Assembly: GCA_001784875.1 (NCBI GenBank)
Contig: MFSH01000015.1
Location: 47,933-111,932, forward strand
From: Candidatus Moranbacteria bacterium RIFOXYB1_FULL_43_19
GTDB lineage: Bacteria; Patescibacteriota; Minisyncoccia; Moranbacterales; UBA11712
DNA: 64,000 bases
Direction of reading: 5' to 3'
In this document: positions 4,034-53,430 of the stretch, piece after piece
Layout of the letters: the number at the start of each line of letters is the position of its first letter
How positions within the stretch are numbered: the stretch's first letter is position 1
Translations under genes and position numbers: made by a program
The notes under the pieces: generated by a model
Told to the model about the DNA's origin: nothing
The model's input: only the letters and a program-made list of their open reading frames with translations
Database searches by the model: none

Positions 4034-4858
4034 ATGGAAAATAGTAAACAGGCTCAAGCCGAGCCCAAAAAAGAGATAACCTCTCAAAACAGCCAAATTC
4101 TGCCGGCTGGTTTTAAGTATGAGGAGCTGGGACTCTCGATCGAGCAAATGCTGAAATTCGGCGTCCATTTCGGACACAAAAAATCCCGCTGGAATCCGAA
4201 AATGAAACCTTATATTTTTTCTGAAAAAGGCAATGTCTATATCATTGATCTTGAAAAGACCATGGCTTTGCTTGAAAAATCCCTTGAATTTGCGCGCCGT
4301 GTCGCAGCCAACGGAGGAAAGATTATTTTTGTCGGAACAAAGCCGCAGGCCAAGCAGGTTGTTGAGGAATGTGCCCGGATGGCTGGAATGCCCTTTGTGA
4401 ACAACAGGTGGTTGGGTGGGACATTGACGAATTTCCGGGAAGTGAAAAAAAGGATAAAATACTTGAATGACCAGGAGGAGAAAATGGCCAAAGGCGAACT
4501 TCAAAAGTATACAAAATACGAAAGGCTTCGCTTCAAGAAAGAAATAGAGCGGATGAACGAAAAGATGGGCGGAATCAAAAAGATGGATTCTCTTCCGCAA
4601 GCTATTTTTGTTGCTGATGCCAAAGAGAATGATTTGGCGGTCAAAGAAGCCAAGAAAATGAAAATTCCGGTGATTGGGATAGTGGATACAAATACTGATC
4701 CGGATCCCATAGACTACCCGATTCCGGCCAACGACGATGCTCTTTCCTCACTTCGATATGTTGTTGGCCTGGTTGCTAAAACCATAAAAGAAACGAAAAA
4801 AGAACCTAAGCCAGCTCCAGTTCAAGAAAAAAATAATTCAAAAAATAAGACGAGTTAA
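4034..4858 (+). CDS. rpsB: 30S ribosomal protein S2
   Basis: GVHFGHKKSRWNPKM signature, 274 aa. Confidence 0.95.
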   Translation: MENSKQAQAEPKKEITSQNSQILPAGFKYEELGLSIEQMLKFGVHFGHKKSRWNPKMKPYIFSEKGNVYIIDLEKTMALLEKSLEFARRVAANGGKIIFVGTKPQAKQVVEECARMAGMPFVNNRWLGGTLTNFREVKKRIKYLNDQEEKMAKGELQKYTKYERLRFKKEIERMNEKMGGIKKMDSLPQAIFVADAKENDLAVKEAKKMKIPVIGIVDTNTDPDPIDYPIPANDDALSSLRYVVGLVAKTIKETKKEPKPAPVQEKNNSKNKTS

Positions 4859-7145: not shown

Positions 7146-7217
7146 GCCGCCCTAGCTCAATGGCAGAGCAACTGTTTTGTAAACAGTAGGTTGTGGGTTC
7201 GAATCCGACGGGCGGCT
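7146..7217 (+). tRNA. tRNA-Thr (anticodon UGU)
   Basis: Cloverleaf folded by hand: acceptor GCCGCCC/GGGCGGC, anticodon stem ACTGT/ACAGT, loop TTTGTAA, T-loop TTCGAAT; one G-G mismatch in the T-stem. Confidence 0.75.
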
Positions 7218-7904: not shown

Positions 7905-7987
7905 GGGTCGGTACCCAAGTGGTTAAAGGGGACGGTCTGTAAAACCGTTGGCTTCGGTCTACGCAGGTTCGAATCCTGCCCGGCCCA
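7905..7987 (+). tRNA. tRNA-Tyr (anticodon GUA), long variable arm
   Basis: Acceptor GGGTCGG/CCGGCCC (one G-U), anticodon loop CTGTAAA, 14-nt variable arm, T-arm GCAGG-TTCGAAT-CCTGC. Confidence 0.8.
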
Positions 7988-13033: not shown

Positions 13034-15082
13034 ATGAAATATTCCTACACTTGGCTGAAAGAATTGTCCAAAACCAAAAAAACGCCCAAACAACTGGCGG
13101 AGCTTTTGACCATGCGCGCTTTTGAATTTGAAGGATCTCAAACTGAAGAGAAAGAAACCCAGATGGAATTTTCAATTCTTCCTAACCGGGGTCATGATGT
13201 CCTTTCTCACATCGGGATGGCGAGGGAAATTTGCGCTTGTGAAGGTCGGAACTTTATCCTAAAGGAAACCTTTAGGCATTTTCTAAAGGTTTCCTTTAGG
13301 AAGAACTTTAGGAAGAAATTTATAGTTGAAATAAAGGACAAAAAACTTTGCCCGCGATATATAGGAGCGGTTTTGGAAAATATCAAAGTCGGTCCTTCTC
13401 CGAAATGGGTGCGGGAAAGACTGCTGGTTTGCGGAGTGAAGCCAATAAACAATATTGTTGATGTCACAAATTATGTGATGCTTGAGACGGGACAACCATT
13501 GCACGCTTTTGATGAATCGATGATCAATGATCAAGGATCAAGGATCAAGATTATTGTTAGGCGAGCGAAAAAAGGGGAGGAGATAAAATTGCTCGATGAA
13601 ATGACTCATAAACTTCGCGATAACGATTTAGTCATTGCCGATTCAGGAAAAGCGCTGGCTCTCGCTGGTGTGATAGGTGGGTTTGATTCTTCGATAACCA
13701 GCAAAACGACGTCGATTATTCTTGAGTCAGCTAATTTCAATTCGACGAGCATCAGAAAAACGAGAACGGCGCATAATCTTATCACCGAATCGTCACACCG
13801 CTTCGAGCGCGAGATTGACCGGAAGCTGGCAGAGGTTGGTATAGCGCGGGCAGTTGAATTGATAAAGGAAATTTGCGGCAAAAATGTCGAGATTGCTGCT
13901 ATGGCGGACGTTTATCCCAAAAAAGTGAAGCCGTGGCAGATAAAATTAAACTCGAGCCATGTATATAGTCTCTTGGGGGAAAATATTCCGGTATCAAAAA
14001 TGAGAAATATTCTTAAAAATCTTGATCTCAAAGTGCTTGGAAGTTCGGCTTCCAAGTTGAATGTAGAGATTCCGACTCGCCGGATTGATCTCAAGACTCA
14101 AGAAGATCTCATCGAAGAAATTGGCCGAATTTATGGCTATGAAAATATCAAGGAGCAAGTGCCGGTCGTCGAAGTGAAGACTCTGCCTCAAAACACGAAA
14201 AGAAATTTTGAAAATAAACTGCGCGATATTTTGATTGGGCTTGGATTTTCAGAAGTTATGAATTACGCGTTTTACTCAAAAGAAGATATTGAAAAATGTA
14301 ATTTGAGAATTGAAGACCACATCGAAGTGGCGAATCCCTTGAGTCTGGACCAGCAATTTCTGCGGAGAAACTTGATCTCCAATCTTCTTAAAAACGTGAA
14401 ATTAAATCTGAAAAATCTTCCGAAAGTCCAAATATTTGAGATTGGCAAAAAATTCCGGAACAACAAAGGAAGGTTTTTGGAATATGACCATTTAGCGGGA
14501 GTATTCGTTGATAGTTTGTCAAAAAACACCCCCTTTTTTGAGCTTAAAGGAAAGGTTGAGGCATTATTGAGAAATTTTGGATATCAAAATGTTAAGTATG
14601 AGGCTCTGACGAATTCTGAAATGAAATTCTGGCACCAAAACCGAACAGCCAGAATGCTGATCGATAATCAGGAAATTGGAAAAGTCGGAGAGATTAACCC
14701 TCAAATTCTCGAGAATTATGGCATTAAAAAACGAGTGGCGGTTTTCGGTATCAAAATTTCTGTTTTACTGGAAATGAAATTGCCCGAAAAACACTACAAA
14801 CCAATCAGCAAATTTCCGATCGTGGAACGTGATATTTCAATGTTTGTTGGTAAAAACACAAAATATGCTGACATAGTTTCAAATATTCGAAAAAACGGAA
14901 GCAGTCTCGTGAAAAATGTCAATCTTTTTGATGTTTTCAAAAATGAAGGCGAAAAAAGTCTGGCGCTGCGCCTCAAAATCGGCTCCGAGGCAAAAACTTT
15001 GACTTCCGCCGAAATTGACACCGCGATGAAAAAAATTACCTCCGCGCTGGAGAAAAATTTGAGGGTAAGAGTGAGAAAATAA
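13034..15082 (+). CDS. pheT: Phenylalanine--tRNA ligase beta subunit (short form, no N-terminal tRNA-binding domain)
   Basis: MKYSYTWLKEL start, B3/4 and B5 regions, C-terminal FDVF anticodon-binding motif; 682 aa. Confidence 0.9.
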   Translation: MKYSYTWLKELSKTKKTPKQLAELLTMRAFEFEGSQTEEKETQMEFSILPNRGHDVLSHIGMAREICACEGRNFILKETFRHFLKVSFRKNFRKKFIVEIKDKKLCPRYIGAVLENIKVGPSPKWVRERLLVCGVKPINNIVDVTNYVMLETGQPLHAFDESMINDQGSRIKIIVRRAKKGEEIKLLDEMTHKLRDNDLVIADSGKALALAGVIGGFDSSITSKTTSIILESANFNSTSIRKTRTAHNLITESSHRFEREIDRKLAEVGIARAVELIKEICGKNVEIAAMADVYPKKVKPWQIKLNSSHVYSLLGENIPVSKMRNILKNLDLKVLGSSASKLNVEIPTRRIDLKTQEDLIEEIGRIYGYENIKEQVPVVEVKTLPQNTKRNFENKLRDILIGLGFSEVMNYAFYSKEDIEKCNLRIEDHIEVANPLSLDQQFLRRNLISNLLKNVKLNLKNLPKVQIFEIGKKFRNNKGRFLEYDHLAGVFVDSLSKNTPFFELKGKVEALLRNFGYQNVKYEALTNSEMKFWHQNRTARMLIDNQEIGKVGEINPQILENYGIKKRVAVFGIKISVLLEMKLPEKHYKPISKFPIVERDISMFVGKNTKYADIVSNIRKNGSSLVKNVNLFDVFKNEGEKSLALRLKIGSEAKTLTSAEIDTAMKKITSALEKNLRVRVRK

Positions 15083-25642: not shown

Positions 25643-27315
25643 TAACTTGTCCATGGGAACCAGCAAAGTATCTGATATTTTCTAGTAATGTGCCATCAAT
25701 TCTTTTTTATGCTCTAATTCCCGGAATGATTGTCGGCGCGCTTCTGGGCTTTTTCGTTTATTTAAAAAATAGAAAATATCTTCCTGCATTAATATTGCTA
25801 GTAATTTCAATCCTTTTCTTTGCCTGGGGATTTTTCGATTTAATACTTTTTGCTACAAATAATCCTTTCGCAGTTATAGTTTTATGGGCATACACGATTT
25901 TAACTGAAGTCCTCATTTACGCTTTTAGTCTGTATCTTTCTTACGTTTTCCTATTTAAACGTGATGCTTCTTTAAAAATAAAAGCATTTATCTTTTTTCT
26001 TTTGGCCCCAGTTATCGCAGTTCTTCCAACACCACTTAATCTCAAAGGTGTTAACCTTGCGGATTGCACCGCGATTGAAAATAAATTTATTATCTTTTAC
26101 AGTTACTCATTGGAAATATTTTTTGCATTGCTTATTTTAGCAATGGCTCTTAAGAAGTATCGAATTTCGCGGGATTCTTCAGAAAAAAAGCAAGCAATTC
26201 TATTTGCATTTGGGATTTCCCTGTTTCTTATTACTTTCTCATCCGGAAATATTATCGGAAGTATTACGGGAGACTGGGTTACATCGCAGTATGGTTATTT
26301 TGGCATGCCGATATTTATCGGTTTCCTGGCCTATCTCATCGTGAAATATAAGGCTTTTAATGTGAAGCTGATTGCATCGCAGGCCCTTGTTGTGGGGCTT
26401 ATCATCGGAATCGGCGCGCAGTTTTTCTTTATACAGAATACGACCAACCAAATTTTAACAGCAATTACTCTTGCCATCGCGATAATTTTTGGCTATCAGC
26501 TCGTCCGTTCTGTGAAGCTTGAAGTCCAGCGGAAAGAGGAATTGGAAAAGCTCTCAACATTGCTTGCGCAGGCCAACGACAAACTGCACCAGCTTGACAG
26601 GGCCAAATCGGAATTCATTTCCATTGCATCTCACCAGCTGCGGACGCCGCTCACATCCATCAAGGGCTTCGGGTCTTTGCTTCTTGAAGGGACATACGGC
26701 CAGGTTCCCGATACCCAAAGGCATGCTCTCGAAAAGATATACGTGTCCAATGAGCGCCTGATCCAGCTCGTTGAAGATCTTTTGAACATTTCCCGGATGG
26801 AGGCAGGGAGGATGGAATTTGACTTCCAGGAGGCGCAGATTGAGGATCTGATCCAGGAAGCGGCGGATACTCTTGAGCTTTCTGCCAAAGCCAAGAGCCT
26901 TTATCTCCATTGGCAAAAACCGGCTTTGGCTTTGCCGAAAACAAAAATTGACATCACCAAAATCAAAGAAGTGATTTCAAATATGATCGACAACGCTATC
27001 AAATATTCGCAAAGGGGCGGGGTGACTGTGCGGGCGGAAAAAGGGAGTTTCTTTGACCATGAAGCGAGAGAACAAAAAAATGTCATCCGCGTCACCGTTT
27101 CTGATACGGGAATCGGCATGGACAAGGAGGAACTGGAAAGCATCTTCAACAAATTCGAGCGGGGGAAGCAGGTGAGCCACTATCACACCGACGGGACAGG
27201 GCTTGGGATGTACGTCGGCAAGAAAATAGTCGAGGCCCACCATGGGCGCATCTGGGCTGAATCAGATGGAAAAGGAAAGGGGAGCCGTTTTATTTTGGAA
27301 TTGCCAATTAGTTAG
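25639..27315 (+). CDS. Sensor histidine kinase with an N-terminal 7-8 TM domain
   Basis: H-box SHQLRTPLTSIKGF, N-box and G2 GTGLGMYVGKKIVEAHHG; multi-TM N-terminus. Confidence 0.85.
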   Translation: MITCPWEPAKYLIFSSNVPSILFYALIPGMIVGALLGFFVYLKNRKYLPALILLVISILFFAWGFFDLILFATNNPFAVIVLWAYTILTEVLIYAFSLYLSYVFLFKRDASLKIKAFIFFLLAPVIAVLPTPLNLKGVNLADCTAIENKFIIFYSYSLEIFFALLILAMALKKYRISRDSSEKKQAILFAFGISLFLITFSSGNIIGSITGDWVTSQYGYFGMPIFIGFLAYLIVKYKAFNVKLIASQALVVGLIIGIGAQFFFIQNTTNQILTAITLAIAIIFGYQLVRSVKLEVQRKEELEKLSTLLAQANDKLHQLDRAKSEFISIASHQLRTPLTSIKGFGSLLLEGTYGQVPDTQRHALEKIYVSNERLIQLVEDLLNISRMEAGRMEFDFQEAQIEDLIQEAADTLELSAKAKSLYLHWQKPALALPKTKIDITKIKEVISNMIDNAIKYSQRGGVTVRAEKGSFFDHEAREQKNVIRVTVSDTGIGMDKEELESIFNKFERGKQVSHYHTDGTGLGMYVGKKIVEAHHGRIWAESDGKGKGSRFILELPIS

Positions 27316-27390
27316 TATTTTGTATCTGGTATATCGTATTTGGTATTTTCTGAGGGACTAAATACTAGCTATAAAATACTAAATACCAGC
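27314..27390. repeat. Imperfect palindromic intergenic element containing CTGGTATTTAGTATTTT modules (same family as 38653-38677)
   Basis: tagtattttgtatctggtat... and reverse-complement aaaatactaaataccag arms; a second copy sits after pgk. Confidence 0.5.
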
Positions 27391-30759: not shown

Positions 30760-30890
30760 GTCTTTAGTAACAGGGTTATTAGCAGTGGGACAAGTCATGA
30801 GTCATTGGTCATCGGATATCCGAAGACTAAAAACCAAAGACCAAACCAACGGCCAACAACCATGTTATCCATGACCAAAATCGTTATTTT

Positions 30891-34022: not shown

Positions 34023-34738
34023 CTTACGAAGTAAAAATACCAAAATTTGAAGGTCCGCTTGATTTGCTCCTCGAACTTATTGAGGAGCAAAAACTTGACA
34101 TAGCCCAGGTTTCAATCGCCAAGGTGGCCGATGATTATCTTCGATATGTCCGGGACGAAAAAAAAATAAGCCTTGAAAACCTGGCGGAGTTCGTGAATAT
34201 CGCTTCAAAGATCATTCTCATCAAATCAAGAAACATCCTGCCGACAATCGAAGTGACTCCCGAAGAAGAAAAGGAGATCCGAGATCTCGAAGAGCAGCTC
34301 AAAGAATATAAGAAATACAAAGAAGCCTCGCTGAAATTAGCCGCCTTGTTTGGAAAGCAAGCCATGTTTTCCCGAGATTATCTCATGGGTTCGGTGGCAG
34401 TTTTTTCTCCGCCAAAAAATATCAATTCGTTTGATCTCAAAAAACAATTTCAAAAATTAATTGACCAGATTGTCCTTCCGGAAAAGATTCCCGAAGAGGC
34501 AATTCGTGATATAATAACCCTGGAAGAAAAAATCAGCGAACTTCAAAAAAGCCTTGAAACGCGAGTGGAAATGGGCTTTTCCCAGTTGAAAAGGTCCGCG
34601 AAAAACAATATTGAGGTGATTGTGAGTTTCTTGGCGCTTCTGGAGCTAGTGAAGCAAAGGATTATTTCCGTCGAACAAAGCGAATTGTTTGAAGACATAA
34701 GAATTAGGAAATCCGAAATCCTAAGGACTAAATCCTAA
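34019..34738 (+). CDS. scpA: Segregation and condensation protein A
   Basis: FEGPLDLLLELIEEQKLDIAQVSIAKVADDYL. Confidence 0.85.
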   Translation: MTYEVKIPKFEGPLDLLLELIEEQKLDIAQVSIAKVADDYLRYVRDEKKISLENLAEFVNIASKIILIKSRNILPTIEVTPEEEKEIRDLEEQLKEYKKYKEASLKLAALFGKQAMFSRDYLMGSVAVFSPPKNINSFDLKKQFQKLIDQIVLPEKIPEEAIRDIITLEEKISELQKSLETRVEMGFSQLKRSAKNNIEVIVSFLALLELVKQRIISVEQSELFEDIRIRKSEILRTKS

Positions 34739-34846
34739 ATAAATTAAAATCTCAAAATTCAAATATTCTAATCGTTTTGGAATTCGGTTATTGGGATTTT
34801 GATATTGTTTTGGGTTTAGATATTCGGATTTAGAATTTGAAAAGAT

Positions 34847-37602: not shown

Positions 37603-38646
37603 ATGAAAAATCTGAAAGATTTAGATTTCAAAAACAAGCGTGTTCTTGTCCGGGCTGATTTCAACGTCCCTCTCGAAAATGGGGCGGTGAAAGACGATTT
37701 TCGGATCAAACTCTCTATTCCCACGCTGGAATATATTCTCAAGCAATCCCGATCAAAGATTGTAATTATTTCGCACTTGGGGCGACCTGATGGAAAAAAC
37801 GTGGCCGATTTTTCGTTGAAACCGGTTGCCCAAACTTTGTCGAAGCTCATGAAAAAGGAAGTGAAATTTATTGGCGGAATAAAAAGCGGGGAAGGAGACG
37901 AATGTGTCCGCAACCTTTCCGACGGTGAAATCGCTCTTACGGAAAACATCCGTTTCTATGCCGAGGAAGAAGCGAATGACGAAAAATTCGCCATTGATGT
38001 TTGCCACCATTTTGGCGTTTATGTCAACGACGCTTTCAGCGCTTCACATCGCGCTCACGCGACTATTGCCCAAATTCCGCGGTTCAAGCCATCCTGCGCC
38101 GGTTTTTTGATGCAAAAAGAGGTAGAAGAGCTTTCAAAGGCCTTGAAACCTGCCAAGAGGCCGTCTATGGCGATTATCGGCGGGGCGAAAATCGAGACGA
38201 AACTACCGGTGATTGAAAATCTGGCGAAAATTTATGACGTTGTCATTTTGGGAGGAAGAATATCCGTTGAGGCTAAGGAAAAAAATATGAAATTTTCACC
38301 AAATGTTGTTTTGCCGGAAGATTTTGCCGAAGGCAATTTTGATATCGGCCCTAAAACAACAGAAAAATATAAAATGGCTATATCTGCCGCATCTTTCGTA
38401 ATCTGGAACGGTCCGATGGGAAAATTTGAAGAAAAAGGATTCCGGCGGGGGACAGACGAAATTTATGAGGCTATAGTGGCTTCAGACGCCTACAAAATTG
38501 CCGGCGGCGGTGAATCGGTTGAATATATCAATATGAAAAATGGCGCGGAAAATTTTGATTTCATCTCCTCTGGCGGCGGAGCCATGCTTGAATTTTTGAG
38601 CGGGAAAAAACTGCCGGGAATTGATGCGCTGGAGAATAGTATTTAG
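37603..38646 (+). CDS. pgk: Phosphoglycerate kinase (short, 347 aa)
   Basis: RADFNVPL, SHLGRP motifs. Confidence 0.9.
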   Translation: MKNLKDLDFKNKRVLVRADFNVPLENGAVKDDFRIKLSIPTLEYILKQSRSKIVIISHLGRPDGKNVADFSLKPVAQTLSKLMKKEVKFIGGIKSGEGDECVRNLSDGEIALTENIRFYAEEEANDEKFAIDVCHHFGVYVNDAFSASHRAHATIAQIPRFKPSCAGFLMQKEVEELSKALKPAKRPSMAIIGGAKIETKLPVIENLAKIYDVVILGGRISVEAKEKNMKFSPNVVLPEDFAEGNFDIGPKTTEKYKMAISAASFVIWNGPMGKFEEKGFRRGTDEIYEAIVASDAYKIAGGGESVEYINMKNGAENFDFISSGGGAMLEFLSGKKLPGIDALENSI

Positions 38647-38652
38647 CAGTTG

Positions 38653-38677
38653 GTATCTGGTATTTAGTATTTTGTAT
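38653..38677. repeat. Second copy of the CTGGTATTTAGTATTTTGTAT intergenic element
   Basis: Exact 17-mer shared with the reverse complement of 27372-27390. Confidence 0.5.
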
Positions 38678-46945: not shown

Positions 46946-47392
46946 TTGACCAATATGAATAAAGTTCGAATCTTTAGCGATGGAGCGGCAAGGGGAAATC
47001 CCGGGCCTTCAGGAGTTGGTGTTGTTATCGAAGTTGGAGCGAGCAAAAAAAACTATCGCGAATTTATTGGTTATGCGACAAACAATGAAGCCGAATACAA
47101 AGCGCTCATTTTCGCCCTTCAGAAAGTGAAGCTCATTTTTGGAAAAGCGAAAAGCAAAAACTTGAATGTCGAATGTTTTTTGGACAGCGAACTAATCGTG
47201 AAACAGCTGAACCACGAATACAAGGTTCTTGAAGAAAATATCCAAAAATTTTTTCTCCTCCTTTGGAATCTTTCCACCGATTTCAAGGAAGTGAAGTATT
47301 TTCATATACCAAGAGCCAAAAATTCGGAAGCAGACAGATTGGCGAATATGGCTCTGGACGAGGCAACCCGGGCCCAAAGCCGCATGTTTTGA
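46946..47392 (+). CDS. rnhA: Ribonuclease HI
   Basis: DGAARGNPGP...NNEAEYKALIFAL...ADRLAN catalytic DEDD residues. Confidence 0.9.
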   Translation: MTNMNKVRIFSDGAARGNPGPSGVGVVIEVGASKKNYREFIGYATNNEAEYKALIFALQKVKLIFGKAKSKNLNVECFLDSELIVKQLNHEYKVLEENIQKFFLLLWNLSTDFKEVKYFHIPRAKNSEADRLANMALDEATRAQSRMF

Positions 47393-47397
47393 AGATT

Positions 47398-47426
47398 AAA
47401 AAGGCTTATAGAAGCCTTTTTAATTT
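47398..47426 (+). terminator. Rho-independent terminator after rnhA
   Basis: aaggctt-atag-aagcctt hairpin followed by TTTTTAATTTT; nearly identical to the hairpin at 23134. Confidence 0.6.
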
Positions 47427-47436
47427 TGTTCTGGCA

Positions 47437-47465
47437 TTGACAGAGGGAAAAATATGCTATAATAT
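47437..47465 (+). promoter_or_regulatory. Putative sigma70-type promoter for rnpB
   Basis: TTGACA-15/16 nt-TATAAT immediately upstream of the predicted P1 5' strand. Confidence 0.5.
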
Positions 47466-47470
47466 GGGTA

Positions 47471-48130
47471 GTTAGTTAAGGCCGGATAACCGCCTCGGTG
47501 TCTACGAATTACGAATCAAATACAAATATACGAATACTAAAAATTAGTAATTCGTATATTCGTAAAGCGAAGCGTATTAGTAATTCGTAGACATCTGGGA
47601 GGAAAGTCCGGACACCTGCTGATGCTGCGCATCAGCAAAGGGGCAATGGATAACACCCATCGGGCGCAGTGAAAACTGCGCTTAGGGAAAGTGTCCCCCT
47701 CACGGGGGATCTCCCGCAAGGGAGGCCACAGAGACTATACGACCCGCCCAAGTTTTTGACTTTTGAAGAGGTCCGACCGCGCGACCAAAAAAGAATGCGG
47801 ACGGACCTCGTCAAAAACTTGGGCGGACAAAGGTGAAAAGCGGGTTGATGTTAGATATCTTGCTCACGTGAAATATTTAGCTGCAACTCGAATCGACCGG
47901 TGACGGTCGAAGTTTGGCAAACCCTGCCTGGTGCAAGCCTGAGCCTCGATTCTATATCGGGGAAGGCGCTTGATCCCGACGGTAACGCCGGGGCTAGATA
48001 AATGGTTATCTCATCCCTCACCACTTTTTGTGAATTTATTCCCAAATATTTTCTTGAGGCAGTAAGAATTTTATTCAGTGAAAGTGGTGAGGGATAAGAC
48101 AGAATCCGGCTTACAGGCCTTAGCTAACAT
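47471..48130 (+). ncRNA. rnpB: RNase P RNA, bacterial type A, with expanded P3, P12 and a 3'-domain insertion helix
   Basis: P1 pairing GTTAGTTAAGGCC / GGCCTTAGCTAAC; P4 GGAGGAAAGTCCGGAC and ACAGAATCCGGCTTA; ACAGAGA...CCGCC; AAAGGTGAAAAG; GGCTAGATAAATGG; terminal T-run. Confidence 0.75.
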
Positions 48131-48215
48131 TTTTTTACGAATAACGAATTTATTTTTTTATTCGTAATTCGTATATTCGTAAAGCGAAGCGTATTCGTAA
48201 TTTGTTGAGATCTTC

Positions 48216-49634
48216 ATGAAAAAGTCCGAACTATTTTTCGCGATACTGCTTGTCCCGGTTGATTTCATCATGATAATCGCGGCTTCCGTCCTCGCTTTTT
48301 GGTTTCGTTTCACCCCCAACATAATTGAAATAAAACCCGTCCTGTTCGATTTTCCTTTTGAGTCATATCTCAAGGTCGCGATTCTTGTCGCGCCGTTTTT
48401 TTTGCTGATTTTTGCTCTTGAAGGCCTATATTCGCTCAAATCCACTCGTGTTTTTTGGAAGGAATTCATCAAAATTGTTTTTTCAGTCACCGTGGGTGTC
48501 ACCTTTGTCGTTCTTTTGATCTTTCTCCAACGAGAATGGTTCTCTTCGCGTTTTGTCATTCTAACCGGCTGGCTCCTGGCGATAATTCTAATCACAATAT
48601 CCCGATATGTCATAAACTTTATCCAAAAACTTCTTCTTGTTTACAAAGGCATTGGTGTCCACCGGCTGGTGCTCATCGGGGAGGGAGGTTACTGCGACAC
48701 AATCTGTCATGAATTCAAAAACAAGCCCGACTTCGGATATCGGATAGTTTCGAAAGAAAAAAAAATAGATCTTGATTCTCTGAGGCTTCTTCAAAAGACG
48801 AAAGGAATTGATGAAATTCTCATCTGCGATCCCAATCTAACCATGAGGGATCTTCGCCAAGTGAGCGATTTTTGCCATCGCAAAAGGATTGAATTCAAGT
48901 TTGTTCCAGCCATTCTTCAGTCAATCAGCACAAATTTTGAAGTGAAGGTTCTTTTTGACGAGCCCCTTATACTTATAAAAAACACCCCTCTTGAAGGATG
49001 GGGAAAAATAGCCAAAAGAATTTTTGACATTTTCGGTTCGATTCTGGGGATTATCGTTACTTCGCCAATCACGATTTTCACGGCGATTGCGATCAAGCTT
49101 GATTCCAAGGGGCCGATAATTTTCAAAAATGAGCGAGTAGGCCACGAAGGAAATTTCAACGTCTATAAATTCCGTTATATGAAAATGGAATATTGCACCG
49201 GATCTCAGAATCCCAATTTCAAAAAAGCTCTTGAGCTTGAAAATGAACTCATAGAAAAGCAAAGCGTCCGCCGGGGCCCGCTCTATAAAATAAAAAACGA
49301 TCCCCGAAAAACCCGGGTAGGAAGAATCATCGAAGCGCTCTCAATTGACGAGCTTCCTCAGCTCTGGAATGTTCTCAAGGGGGAGATGAGCCTCGTTGGT
49401 CCACGTCCCCATCAGCCGCGGGAAGTCGAAAAATATGAAACCTGGCAAAAAAGAGCTTTGTCCGTGAAACCCGGAATCACGGGACTGGCGCAAATATCCG
49501 GCCGCTCCGATCTTTCTTTTTCCGACGAGGCGCGCCTCGATATCTACTATATCGAGAACTGGTCGCTCTGGCTCGATATCCAAATTATCTTCAAGACATT
49601 TTTCGTACTGCTCAAAAAAAGAAAGAATCTGTAA
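48216..49634 (+). CDS. Polyprenyl-phosphate sugar phosphotransferase (WbaP/WcaJ-like bacterial sugar transferase)
   Basis: N-terminal TM bundle, C-terminal PIIFKNERVG...LPQLWNVLKGEMSLVGPRP. Confidence 0.85.
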   Translation: MKKSELFFAILLVPVDFIMIIAASVLAFWFRFTPNIIEIKPVLFDFPFESYLKVAILVAPFFLLIFALEGLYSLKSTRVFWKEFIKIVFSVTVGVTFVVLLIFLQREWFSSRFVILTGWLLAIILITISRYVINFIQKLLLVYKGIGVHRLVLIGEGGYCDTICHEFKNKPDFGYRIVSKEKKIDLDSLRLLQKTKGIDEILICDPNLTMRDLRQVSDFCHRKRIEFKFVPAILQSISTNFEVKVLFDEPLILIKNTPLEGWGKIAKRIFDIFGSILGIIVTSPITIFTAIAIKLDSKGPIIFKNERVGHEGNFNVYKFRYMKMEYCTGSQNPNFKKALELENELIEKQSVRRGPLYKIKNDPRKTRVGRIIEALSIDELPQLWNVLKGEMSLVGPRPHQPREVEKYETWQKRALSVKPGITGLAQISGRSDLSFSDEARLDIYYIENWSLWLDIQIIFKTFFVLLKKRKNL

Positions 49635-52723: not shown

Positions 52724-52785
52724 GCCGTAAAGCAATTCGTAATTGGAAATTTGTAATTTGGATATATTTTTATCCCAGTTACTGA

Positions 52786-53430
52786 TTGCGAATTGCAAAT
52801 TATAATTTTATGGAACTTCGAGAATATTATAAAATTTTAAAATCAAATATCTCAGTTGTTATGTATGCAACTCTTATCACTGTTGTGATTGTTTATGCTT
52901 GGTCAGTCCGACGATCAGAGACTTTTTCTGCCTCATTTCTTTTGAGTGTTGGCCGATTAGCCAGCCAGGACACGGCTGATTACCGGTATGACCAGTTTTA
53001 TCGTTTTCAGGCTGACGAAAAATTTGCTGAAACCATAGTCCAGTGGCTTTCTTCTCCAGGAGTGTCGAAAAGCATTCTTGACAAGGCCGAAGTAAAATCC
53101 GATGGAAAAACAATCCGCCAGCTTTCAAAAAGCTTCCGGGCGGAAAAAATTTCAAGTAGCCTGGTCGGCGTCCGCTACGGGACCCAATCGGAAGATGAAG
53201 GGAAAAAACTGGCTGTTGCCATATCTTCTCTTGTGTTAGACAAGACGAAAAATATGAATTCGGAGGCGCGAGACCCAGATTGGTTTTCAGTCGATATGGC
53301 AAATCTGATTGTTGCAAAAAATACCCAGGACTTGAGGATAAATCTGGGGCTCGCGGCGCTTTTCGGAATTTTCATTGGTTCGCTCCTGGCTTTCGGGAAA
53401 CATTATATTTCGGACGAAACAGAAAAATGA
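52786..53430 (+). CDS. Bitopic membrane protein, possibly a Wzz-like polysaccharide chain-length determinant
   Basis: N-terminal and C-terminal TM helices flanking a soluble domain of about 150 aa; inside a glycan locus; assignment tentative. Confidence 0.3.
   Translation: MRIANYNFMELREYYKILKSNISVVMYATLITVVIVYAWSVRRSETFSASFLLSVGRLASQDTADYRYDQFYRFQADEKFAETIVQWLSSPGVSKSILDKAEVKSDGKTIRQLSKSFRAEKISSSLVGVRYGTQSEDEGKKLAVAISSLVLDKTKNMNSEARDPDWFSVDMANLIVAKNTQDLRINLGLAALFGIFIGSLLAFGKHYISDETEK

Follow-up and report, generated by a model that had tools for sequence, protein, structure and literature searches.

How does a bacterial RNase P RNA come to carry long hairpins at the tips of its helices, and where do such hairpins come from? 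The question is raised by a 64,000-nt stretch of contig MFSH01000015.1 of Candidatus Moranbacteria bacterium RIFOXYB1_FULL_43_19, a member of the Candidate Phyla Radiation (CPR); we call the whole stretch the window. On its forward strand, between a gene for an RNase H-like protein and one for a bacterial sugar transferase, lies a 658-nt gene for the RNA component of RNase P, rnpB. Our analysis makes it probable that this is a functional rnpB with tolerated hairpin cassettes, which would have been copied at the DNA level into the tips of peripheral helices. Coordinates are those of the window unless a related locus is named (L007, L008 and so on), and the features are collected in Table 1.

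The predicted gene, at 47471-48128, is identified as the rnpB of this bacterium by its match to the Rfam model RF00010, the synteny of its orthologues, the covariation of its P1 helix and its conserved promoter. Searched on the slice 47350-48300, RF00010 gave a score of 91.3 bits (E 2.9e-28), which does not reach the gathering cut-off of 100 bits, and an Rfam scan at the gathering threshold listed no match to it for the whole window. We attribute the shortfall to the inserts and to the covariance-model aligner, which misplaces P1 into an arm of P3. The first-pass annotation of this DNA had proposed the RF00010 search as a check, and a failure of the model to score as grounds for giving up the assignment; in substance the model does score, though under the cut-off. 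In the rnpB gap of 6 of the 7 syntenic relatives, RF00010 scored 120.7-174.5 bits.

The seven universal type-A blocks, already recognised in the first-pass annotation, were all located in canonical order and align to the model consensus; they begin at 47598 (GGAGGAAAGTCCGG), 47727 (CACAGAGA), 47831 (AGGTGAAAAG), 47916 (GGCAAACCC), 47931 (GTGCAAGCC), 47994 (CTAGATAAATGG) and 48099 (ACAGAATCCGGCTTA). The RNA is closed by P1, in which 13 of 13 base pairs form between 47471-47483 and 48116-48128, at a length that agrees with the roughly 660 nt first estimated. Among 20 relatives, each column of P1 shows several standard pair types. P2 pairs GGATAACC with GGTTATCT, so that both helices close the ends of the RNA, the P1 part being backed by covariation. 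The type-A specificity domain is represented by P13, P14 (GTGA loop) and P18 (GTAA loop), which align to the model and fold as hairpins. The catalytic and specificity cores are intact, with P1, P2, P4, P5, P7-P11, P13, P14, P18 and the universal junction sequences all in place.

Seven relatives showing 65-81% RecJ identity share the gene order RecJ - RNase H - rnpB - Bac_transf, with an rnpB-bearing gap of 547-997 nt across syntenic relatives. The putative promoter matches the consensus at 10 of 12 positions, with an overlapping TGcTATAAT at 47455-63, and transcription would start at about 47471. TTGACA...(TG)nTAtAAT stands at an equal distance from P1 in 7/7 syntenic relatives, and the conserved promoter appears to be of the sigma-70 type. 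The 823-nt intergenic stretch that holds the gene is 100% identical across the NCBI, ENA and JGI assemblies. Because these three independent assemblies agree, an assembly artefact or a chimera was ruled out.

The inserts were mapped by reference to the compact 404-nt RNA of L010, whose core is 78% identical to that of the window outside indels. Four clean insertions were obtained: 93 nt in P3, 32 nt in the 5' strand of P10/11, 70 nt at the tip of P12 and about 55 nt in P19. Together these young hairpin cassettes give this species about 250 nt of additional RNA at the solvent-exposed tips of its helices (P3, P10/11 strand, P12, P19). All of them fold as very stable autonomous hairpins; the values are -42.2 kcal/mol (z -8.1) for P3, -49.7 kcal/mol (z -8.3) for P12 and -36 kcal/mol (z -6.2) for P19. 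The P10/11 insert is also clean with respect to L008, L012, L013 and L014, and similar inserts occur in L011, L009 and L053. P19, whose perfect 15 bp join 48013-48027 to 48081-48095, is 90% identical over 91 nt to the sequence at the same position of L053 and is short or absent in L009, L010 and L012.

The first-pass annotation had already placed the excess length in P3, P12 and the helix between the 3' strands of P2 and P4, but had overlooked the insert in P10/11. Some of its limits have to be moved: the P3 hairpin, given as 47499-47590, spans about 47500-47596; the perfect 17-bp stem of P12 is confirmed, but its arm positions end the helix at 47826 and not at 47835; and the 15-bp stem of the 3' domain is real, but a start at 47995 takes in J18/2 and the 3' strand of P2. 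The last stem had been described as an extra helix. It is P19, a helix known to vary in length (PMC12974513), which is simply long here.

Other departures from the model are traits of the clade, namely the P5.1-like hairpin, the long P13, the P19 helix, the reduced P15-P17 region and the lack of GGU in L15. The P5.1-like hairpin, absent from the earlier description, is seen in all relatives and shows compensatory changes in 5 of 7 predicted pairs (8 relatives); it is clade-wide for these reasons. The P13-P14 spacing is 76-84 nt and similar among close relatives. The P15-P17 region measures 12 nt against 33 in the model; P17, P6 and the GGU of L15 are missing. Two tRNA genes of the window (7146-7217 and 7905-7987) encode no 3' CCA, and the P15 loop (47937-47967) is without the CCA-binding GGU.

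Inserts of this shape are familiar from another RNA. The intervening sequences (IVSs) of rRNA extend the ends of conserved helices as long stem-loops with almost perfect pairing; they are sporadic among close relatives and sometimes bear an open reading frame (ORF), and the insertions of CPR rRNA genes are reportedly missing from the mature rRNA. Could the rnpB inserts be excised in the same way, by RNase III or another nuclease as in 23S rRNA, to leave a fragmented but still functional RNA that its remaining helices hold in one piece? The inserts do fit the IVS-type trait, since they are extended stem-loops at conserved helix tips and sporadic among close relatives, and their architecture resembles that of rRNA IVSs. 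Stems of 15-17 perfect base pairs plus their extensions would be plausible substrates for RNase III. ORFs are also found: P3 of L011 contains a gene for a GIY-YIG protein of 85 aa (about 4258-4515), with a homologue inside P3 of L018 (Pfam E 2.5e-17, 40% identity). However, no Rfam intron family matched 47350-48300, L011, L039, L045, L053 or L089 in E-value mode, which rules out an intron-like insertion and speaks against an IVS, and removal of the P10/11 insert, which is embedded in a core strand, would disrupt P11. The 64-kb window shows no RNase III or RnpA motif, a result that is uninformative on this point. Excision would be a conjecture, and we consider this explanation unlikely.

An indication of where an insert may come from is given by P3, which has a twin in the spacer between rnpB and the transferase gene. 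Positions 47543-47596 and 48160-48213 share 54 nt with 91% identity, including a 39-nt core with 97%. Since the 5' arm is duplicated too (TACGAATTACGAAT at 47503 and TACGAATAACGAAT at 48136), it is the entire hairpin that recurs and not one arm. The 42-nt repeat first reported at 48150-48195 is therefore real, but longer, shifted and accompanied by its 5' arm. Where 6.7 copies of the heptamer TACGAAT would be expected, the window has 18, and 11 of these fall within the P3 insert and the spacer copy; P3 holds six, among them one tandem pair. As a fold, the spacer hairpin is weak (-19.1 kcal/mol, z -2.7). When rnpB was compared with its flanks, only the heptamer-hairpin matches were informative, most matches being trivial ones to the upstream RNase H gene.

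Apart from the spacer element of the window, the sole matches to the P3 insert are the spacer hairpins of L011 and L008, located at the equivalent site just before the transferase ATG; neither of these loci has the insert in P3. Nor was the TACGAAT insert found in P3 of about 68 further rnpB genes. Both the P3 and the spacer copy are missing from L053, which resembles the window so closely in P19 and in which rnpB and the ATG are about 20 nt apart. In a four-way alignment, an inner repeat of the 5' arm (TACRAATATACGAA) is present in the P3 copy and the L008 spacer and missing from the spacer of the window, and AAAGCGAAGCGT is common to the P3 copy and the spacer of the window only. Because L011 and L008 carry the hairpin in the spacer without an insert in P3, the simplest history is one in which the spacer hairpin would be ancestral and the P3 copy derived. 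The spacer hairpin would have been copied into the tip of P3 in the lineage of the window, from about 0.6 kb downstream, and a later deletion would have shortened the 5' arm of the spacer copy. This reverses the direction first proposed for the duplication, from the P3 arm to the downstream spacer. In L009, L010 and L012, the spacer between rnpB and the transferase gene has a ACATAACACAT.../GTTCCATGTTCC heptamer element in place of the TACGAAT hairpin, which reaches the ATG directly (GTTCCAT GTTCCAT GTTCC|ATG).

The position of the spacer hairpin suggests a different role, that of a signal acting mainly on the sugar-transferase gene as promoter, terminator or hairpin of the 5'-UTR, in which case the P3 copy would cause cross-talk, for example if the 5' arm of P3 paired with the 3' arm of the spacer hairpin. 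In three species the hairpin stops short of the ATG by 2-7 nt, other heptamer arrays of the window and of relatives also adjoin start codons, and the P3 5' arm at 47503-47520 is 94% complementary to 48156-48173. However, this complementarity follows automatically from the copying of a hairpin, L053 does without both copies although it is a close relative, and a consensus search found neither a promoter nor a terminator in the spacer. We regard a mainly regulatory element as very improbable.

The heptamers of P3 are one case among many. The window contains 10 period-7 tandem arrays, compared with 0.4 (maximum 2) in dinucleotide shuffles, and no period other than 7 is enriched in it. Most of the arrays are intergenic; frequently they make up the two sides of a hairpin, and frequently they stop right in front of a start codon, while the heptamer unit differs from locus to locus. 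Relatives carry heptamer arrays as well; the genome of L008 has a TACGAAT-type array before another gene, and a CCAAT/CCAAA-type hairpin that resembles the P15-P17 insert of L089. The P3 insert is thus a member of a genome-wide class of intergenic heptamer-repeat hairpins, here sitting inside an RNA gene. The closest relative, L007 (82% RecJ identity), has a contig that stops just before rnpB; its iPGM-PfkB spacer (757-870) contains AATTGTA/ATTCGTA heptamers with a GC-rich palindrome (GCCTGCCTGCCGGCAGGCAGGC), and TACCAAT/TACAAAT heptamers that run to the PfkB ATG.

A second kind of cassette was found, in the sequence searched, only within rnpB genes. Scanning metagenomes with a core block specific to the clade recovered 80 further rnpB loci. 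The distance between the two P4 strands is mostly 240-390 nt; it reaches 500 nt in the window, 685 in L039, 863 in L089 and 1054 in L045, and module lengths differ widely among relatives with 65-82% RecJ identity. The P12 cassette of the window is 95.7% identical over 69 nt to the tip of P15/16 in L011 (4824-4891), whose own P12 is short. Cross-contamination as the source of the L011 cassette was ruled out, as 3 of the 69 positions differ from those of the window. Several relatives also carry repeated modules within a single rnpB: L008 repeats a single hairpin in P3, in P15-P18 and in P19 (6836-6872, 7222-7258 and 7355-7391); L045 has a module of about 200 nt three times, with up to 99.5% identity; P3 of L039 resembles its own P19. 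In L089, P19 is the reverse complement of P3 with 129 of 136 positions identical, against 102 of 148 in direct orientation. Since nothing but the hairpin shape survives in an inverted copy, this argues for copying at the level of DNA. These comparisons establish that the inserts are young, sit at peripheral positions and have been copied between sites in either orientation. For L045, L089 and L039, RF00010 scores fall to 48-93 bits, and their rnpB genes would be overlooked by standard annotation for that reason; when such genes score below the cut-off, a CPR genome can easily be recorded as lacking rnpB.

The hairpins with a GAGGTC(C/G)(G/A)ACCGC stem form a family of 8 non-redundant copies, all inside rnpB, whose stem sequence is kept across four species and five helix positions. 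Outside rnpB, neither the 64-kb window nor some 560 kb of retrieved loci yielded a copy. Six matches on viral contigs were rejected as chance palindromes (57-70% GC, unrelated flanks). An exact match to AGTTTTTGACTTT at 452-464 of the window was likewise put down to chance, since it lies in ordinary sequence with no surrounding hairpin. Readings of the cassette loops as kink-turns or hammerhead-like elements were dropped, the consensus elements being absent by eye.

The conserved stem and the confinement of this hairpin to rnpB are what one would expect of a selected functional module, that is, a brace or a protein- or RNA-binding platform with a shared ligand, stabilising an RNA without P6, P16 and P17. 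The clade has indeed lost these helices, and Bacilli offer a precedent in which the loss of P6 coincides with a replacement bridge of P5.1 and P18.0 (PMC12974513). The site of the cassette is not conserved, however, being P12 here and P15/16 in L011, and compact 404-nt orthologues lack cassettes entirely. Moreover, the inverted copy of L089 alters the loop and bulge sequences, and the cassette of P3 is a repeat of the usual intergenic kind. Selected modules therefore strike us as improbable, more so than excised IVSs.

We return to the reading set out at the start, of tolerated cassettes copied into helix tips. Existing hairpins would be duplicated at the DNA level into the tips of other hairpins, possibly by palindrome-mediated template switching or by ectopic gene conversion. 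The P12 cassette belongs to the GAGGTC-stem family, which would move between the rnpB helices of related species. The cassettes would most likely be near-neutral expansion segments that lengthen peripheral helices and leave the active site untouched. Several points weigh against this account. The RF00010 score lies under the curated gathering cut-off. No target-site duplications or junction signatures were found, and the copying mechanism is inferred from sequence patterns. The ends of the RNA and the retention of the inserts in its mature form are likewise predicted from sequence. The search for cassette copies in this genome spans 64 kb. Finally, a GAGGTC-stem family confined to rnpB could reflect selection for RNase P function and not neutrality.

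It is also conceivable, though doubtful in our eyes, that in a Moranbacteria-like CPR clade self-copying hairpin cassettes land preferentially in rnpB, where they would enter P3, P5.1, P12, P13, P15-P17 and P19 in either orientation. This would include an occasional GIY-YIG gene in P3 and RNAs ranging from about 400 to more than 1,000 nt across sister lineages. If true, it would amount to a new mobile module specific to an RNA gene and a live case of the birth of expansion segments. Traits of miniature inverted-repeat transposable elements or repetitive extragenic palindromes are mixed: no target-site duplications were seen, and the GAGGTC cassette has no extragenic copies in the 64-kb window and the 560 kb of loci; the heptamer hairpins are dispersed, yet their unit differs at each locus.

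As to the surroundings, the terminator-like hairpin that follows the RNase H-like gene has a homologue in relatives, of the form AAGGCTT...AAGCCTTTTT. Downstream, the WbaP-like gene of the first-pass annotation was found as a gene with a PF02397 domain starting at 48216. A RecJ search of a collection of genome contigs returned an unrelated Anaerolineae locus as its sole match. In L066, several tandem repeats of about 96-109 nt (84-91% identical) stand upstream of rnpB and overlap the start of the rnpB segment.

Table 1. Features of the rnpB locus and period-7 arrays of the window
Feature	Position	Strand	Evidence or remarks
Terminator-like hairpin after the upstream RNase H-like gene (46946-47392)	47392-47427	+	16-nt arms, 94% complementary, 4-nt loop
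Putative rnpB promoter	47437-47465	+	-35 TTGACA (47437-42), 17-nt spacer, -10 TAATAT (47460-65)
rnpB, type-A RNase P RNA gene	47471-48128	+	RF00010 score, orthologue synteny, P1 covariation, core identity to L010
P3 helix	47493-47599	+	Insert about 47500-47596 (93-97 nt), TACGAAT/ATTCGTA heptamer arms
P4 5' strand (GAGGAAAGTCCGG)	47599-47611	+	Covariance-model alignment, comparison with relatives
P5.1-like hairpin between P5 and P7	47617-47637	+	Insertion of 14+ nt in covariance-model alignment
Two-hairpin insert (32 nt) in P10/11 5' strand	47693-47724	+	CCCCC-TCAC-GGGGG and CTCCC-GCAA-GGGAG
P12 (83 nt)	47744-47826	+	Perfect 17-bp arms 47744-47760 / 47810-47826
P12 cassette (69-nt hairpin)	47751-47819	+	Tip GAGGTCCGACCGC...GCGGACGGACCTC
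P13 (47841-47890; long form, clade-shared) and P14 (47893-47910; GTGA loop)	47841-47910	+	Model alignment, fold
Reduced P15/P16 (47937-47967) and P18 (47974-47993; GTAA loop)	47937-47993	+	Model alignment
Long P19 helix, between P2 3' strand (48004-48011) and P4 3' strand	48013-48095	+	15-bp perfect stem
P4 3' strand (ACAGAATCCGGCTTA)	48099-48113	+	Covariance-model alignment, comparison with relatives
Spacer heptamer-repeat hairpin (copy B)	48136-48213	+	Ends 2 nt before Bac_transf ATG
Bacterial sugar transferase gene (Bac_transf, WbaP-like)	48216-49634	+	Pfam PF02397, E 4.6e-64
Period-7 arrays	27315-27386, 34709-34800, 52734-52810, 38637-38677, 30823-30845, 1253-1281, 13522-13549		

How far is such an RNA already known? 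It has the P1-P5, P7-P14 and P18 helices, the universal P4 strands and the J11/12, J12/13 and J18/2 sequences of RF00010 type A. It differs in its length (658 nt against a model of 367 positions), its large inserts in P3, P10/11, P12 and P19, its additional P5.1-like hairpin and its lack of P17, P6 and the L15 GGU. For CPR bacteria, the passages on RNase P RNA in Lui, Nielsen & Arkin 2021 (PMC8172020) describe RNAs in which helices are greatly extended or absent, 10 of 35 falling under Rfam thresholds and 23 of 35 being without the UGG/CCA-binding motif. The RNA of the window fits the diverged CPR RNase P RNAs of these passages, including the loss of GGU that is common in CPR; that an RNase P RNA can be enlarged and escape Rfam is therefore already known for CPR. 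Repeated inter-helix cassettes, copies shared with a spacer, inverted copies and nested nuclease genes do not appear in the same passages. In the literature searched, there was no account of cassettes common to different helices and a flanking spacer, of an inverted helix duplication, of GIY-YIG genes nested in P3, or of STRR-like heptamer repeats (STRR, short tandemly repeated repetitive sequence) in CPR genomes. The shuffling of cassettes among rnpB helices appears to be new.

For the heptamers, the nearest parallel lies in heterocyst-forming cyanobacteria, where Vioque is said to have described in 1997 STRR heptamers inside P12 of the RNase P RNA, from a class that is normally intergenic. 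Here too, tandem 7-nt units lie in a peripheral helix and the repeat class is dispersed in the intergenic DNA of the same genome, so that in both cases genome-wide, normally intergenic heptanucleotide repeats lengthen a peripheral helix of RNase P RNA. In contrast to the cyanobacterial case, the host belongs to the CPR, the helix is P3 and not P12, the heptamers are locus-specific, the repeats build both arms of the hairpin, and a donor copy can be identified 0.6 kb away. The intergenic heptamer-repeat hairpins of CPR merit a separate study.

Insertions are frequent in CPR rRNA genes, where most of them resemble group-I or group-II introns and bear genes of the LAGLIDADG type (Tsurumaki et al. 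2024, PMC11270868). The rnpB inserts are similar in being sporadic in the gene of a conserved structural RNA, some with ORFs of homing-endonuclease type. They differ in that no intron model matches them, those of the window are plain hairpins, and the ORFs of relatives encode small GIY-YIG proteins.

Finally, the accretion model proposes that RNase P RNA grows by autonomous helical segments added at helix tips; P19 stacks with P3 and is of variable length, and P5.1 was gained where P6 was lost (PMC12974513). That model is a structural inference over deep time, whereas the additions described here are recent, their donors are identifiable and sister species differ in them. The origin of expansion segments has so far been inferred mostly from such deep-time structures; here donors, recipients and orientation can be read from sister genomes, and the acquisition of expansion segments becomes testable by comparative genomics together with deletion and activity experiments.

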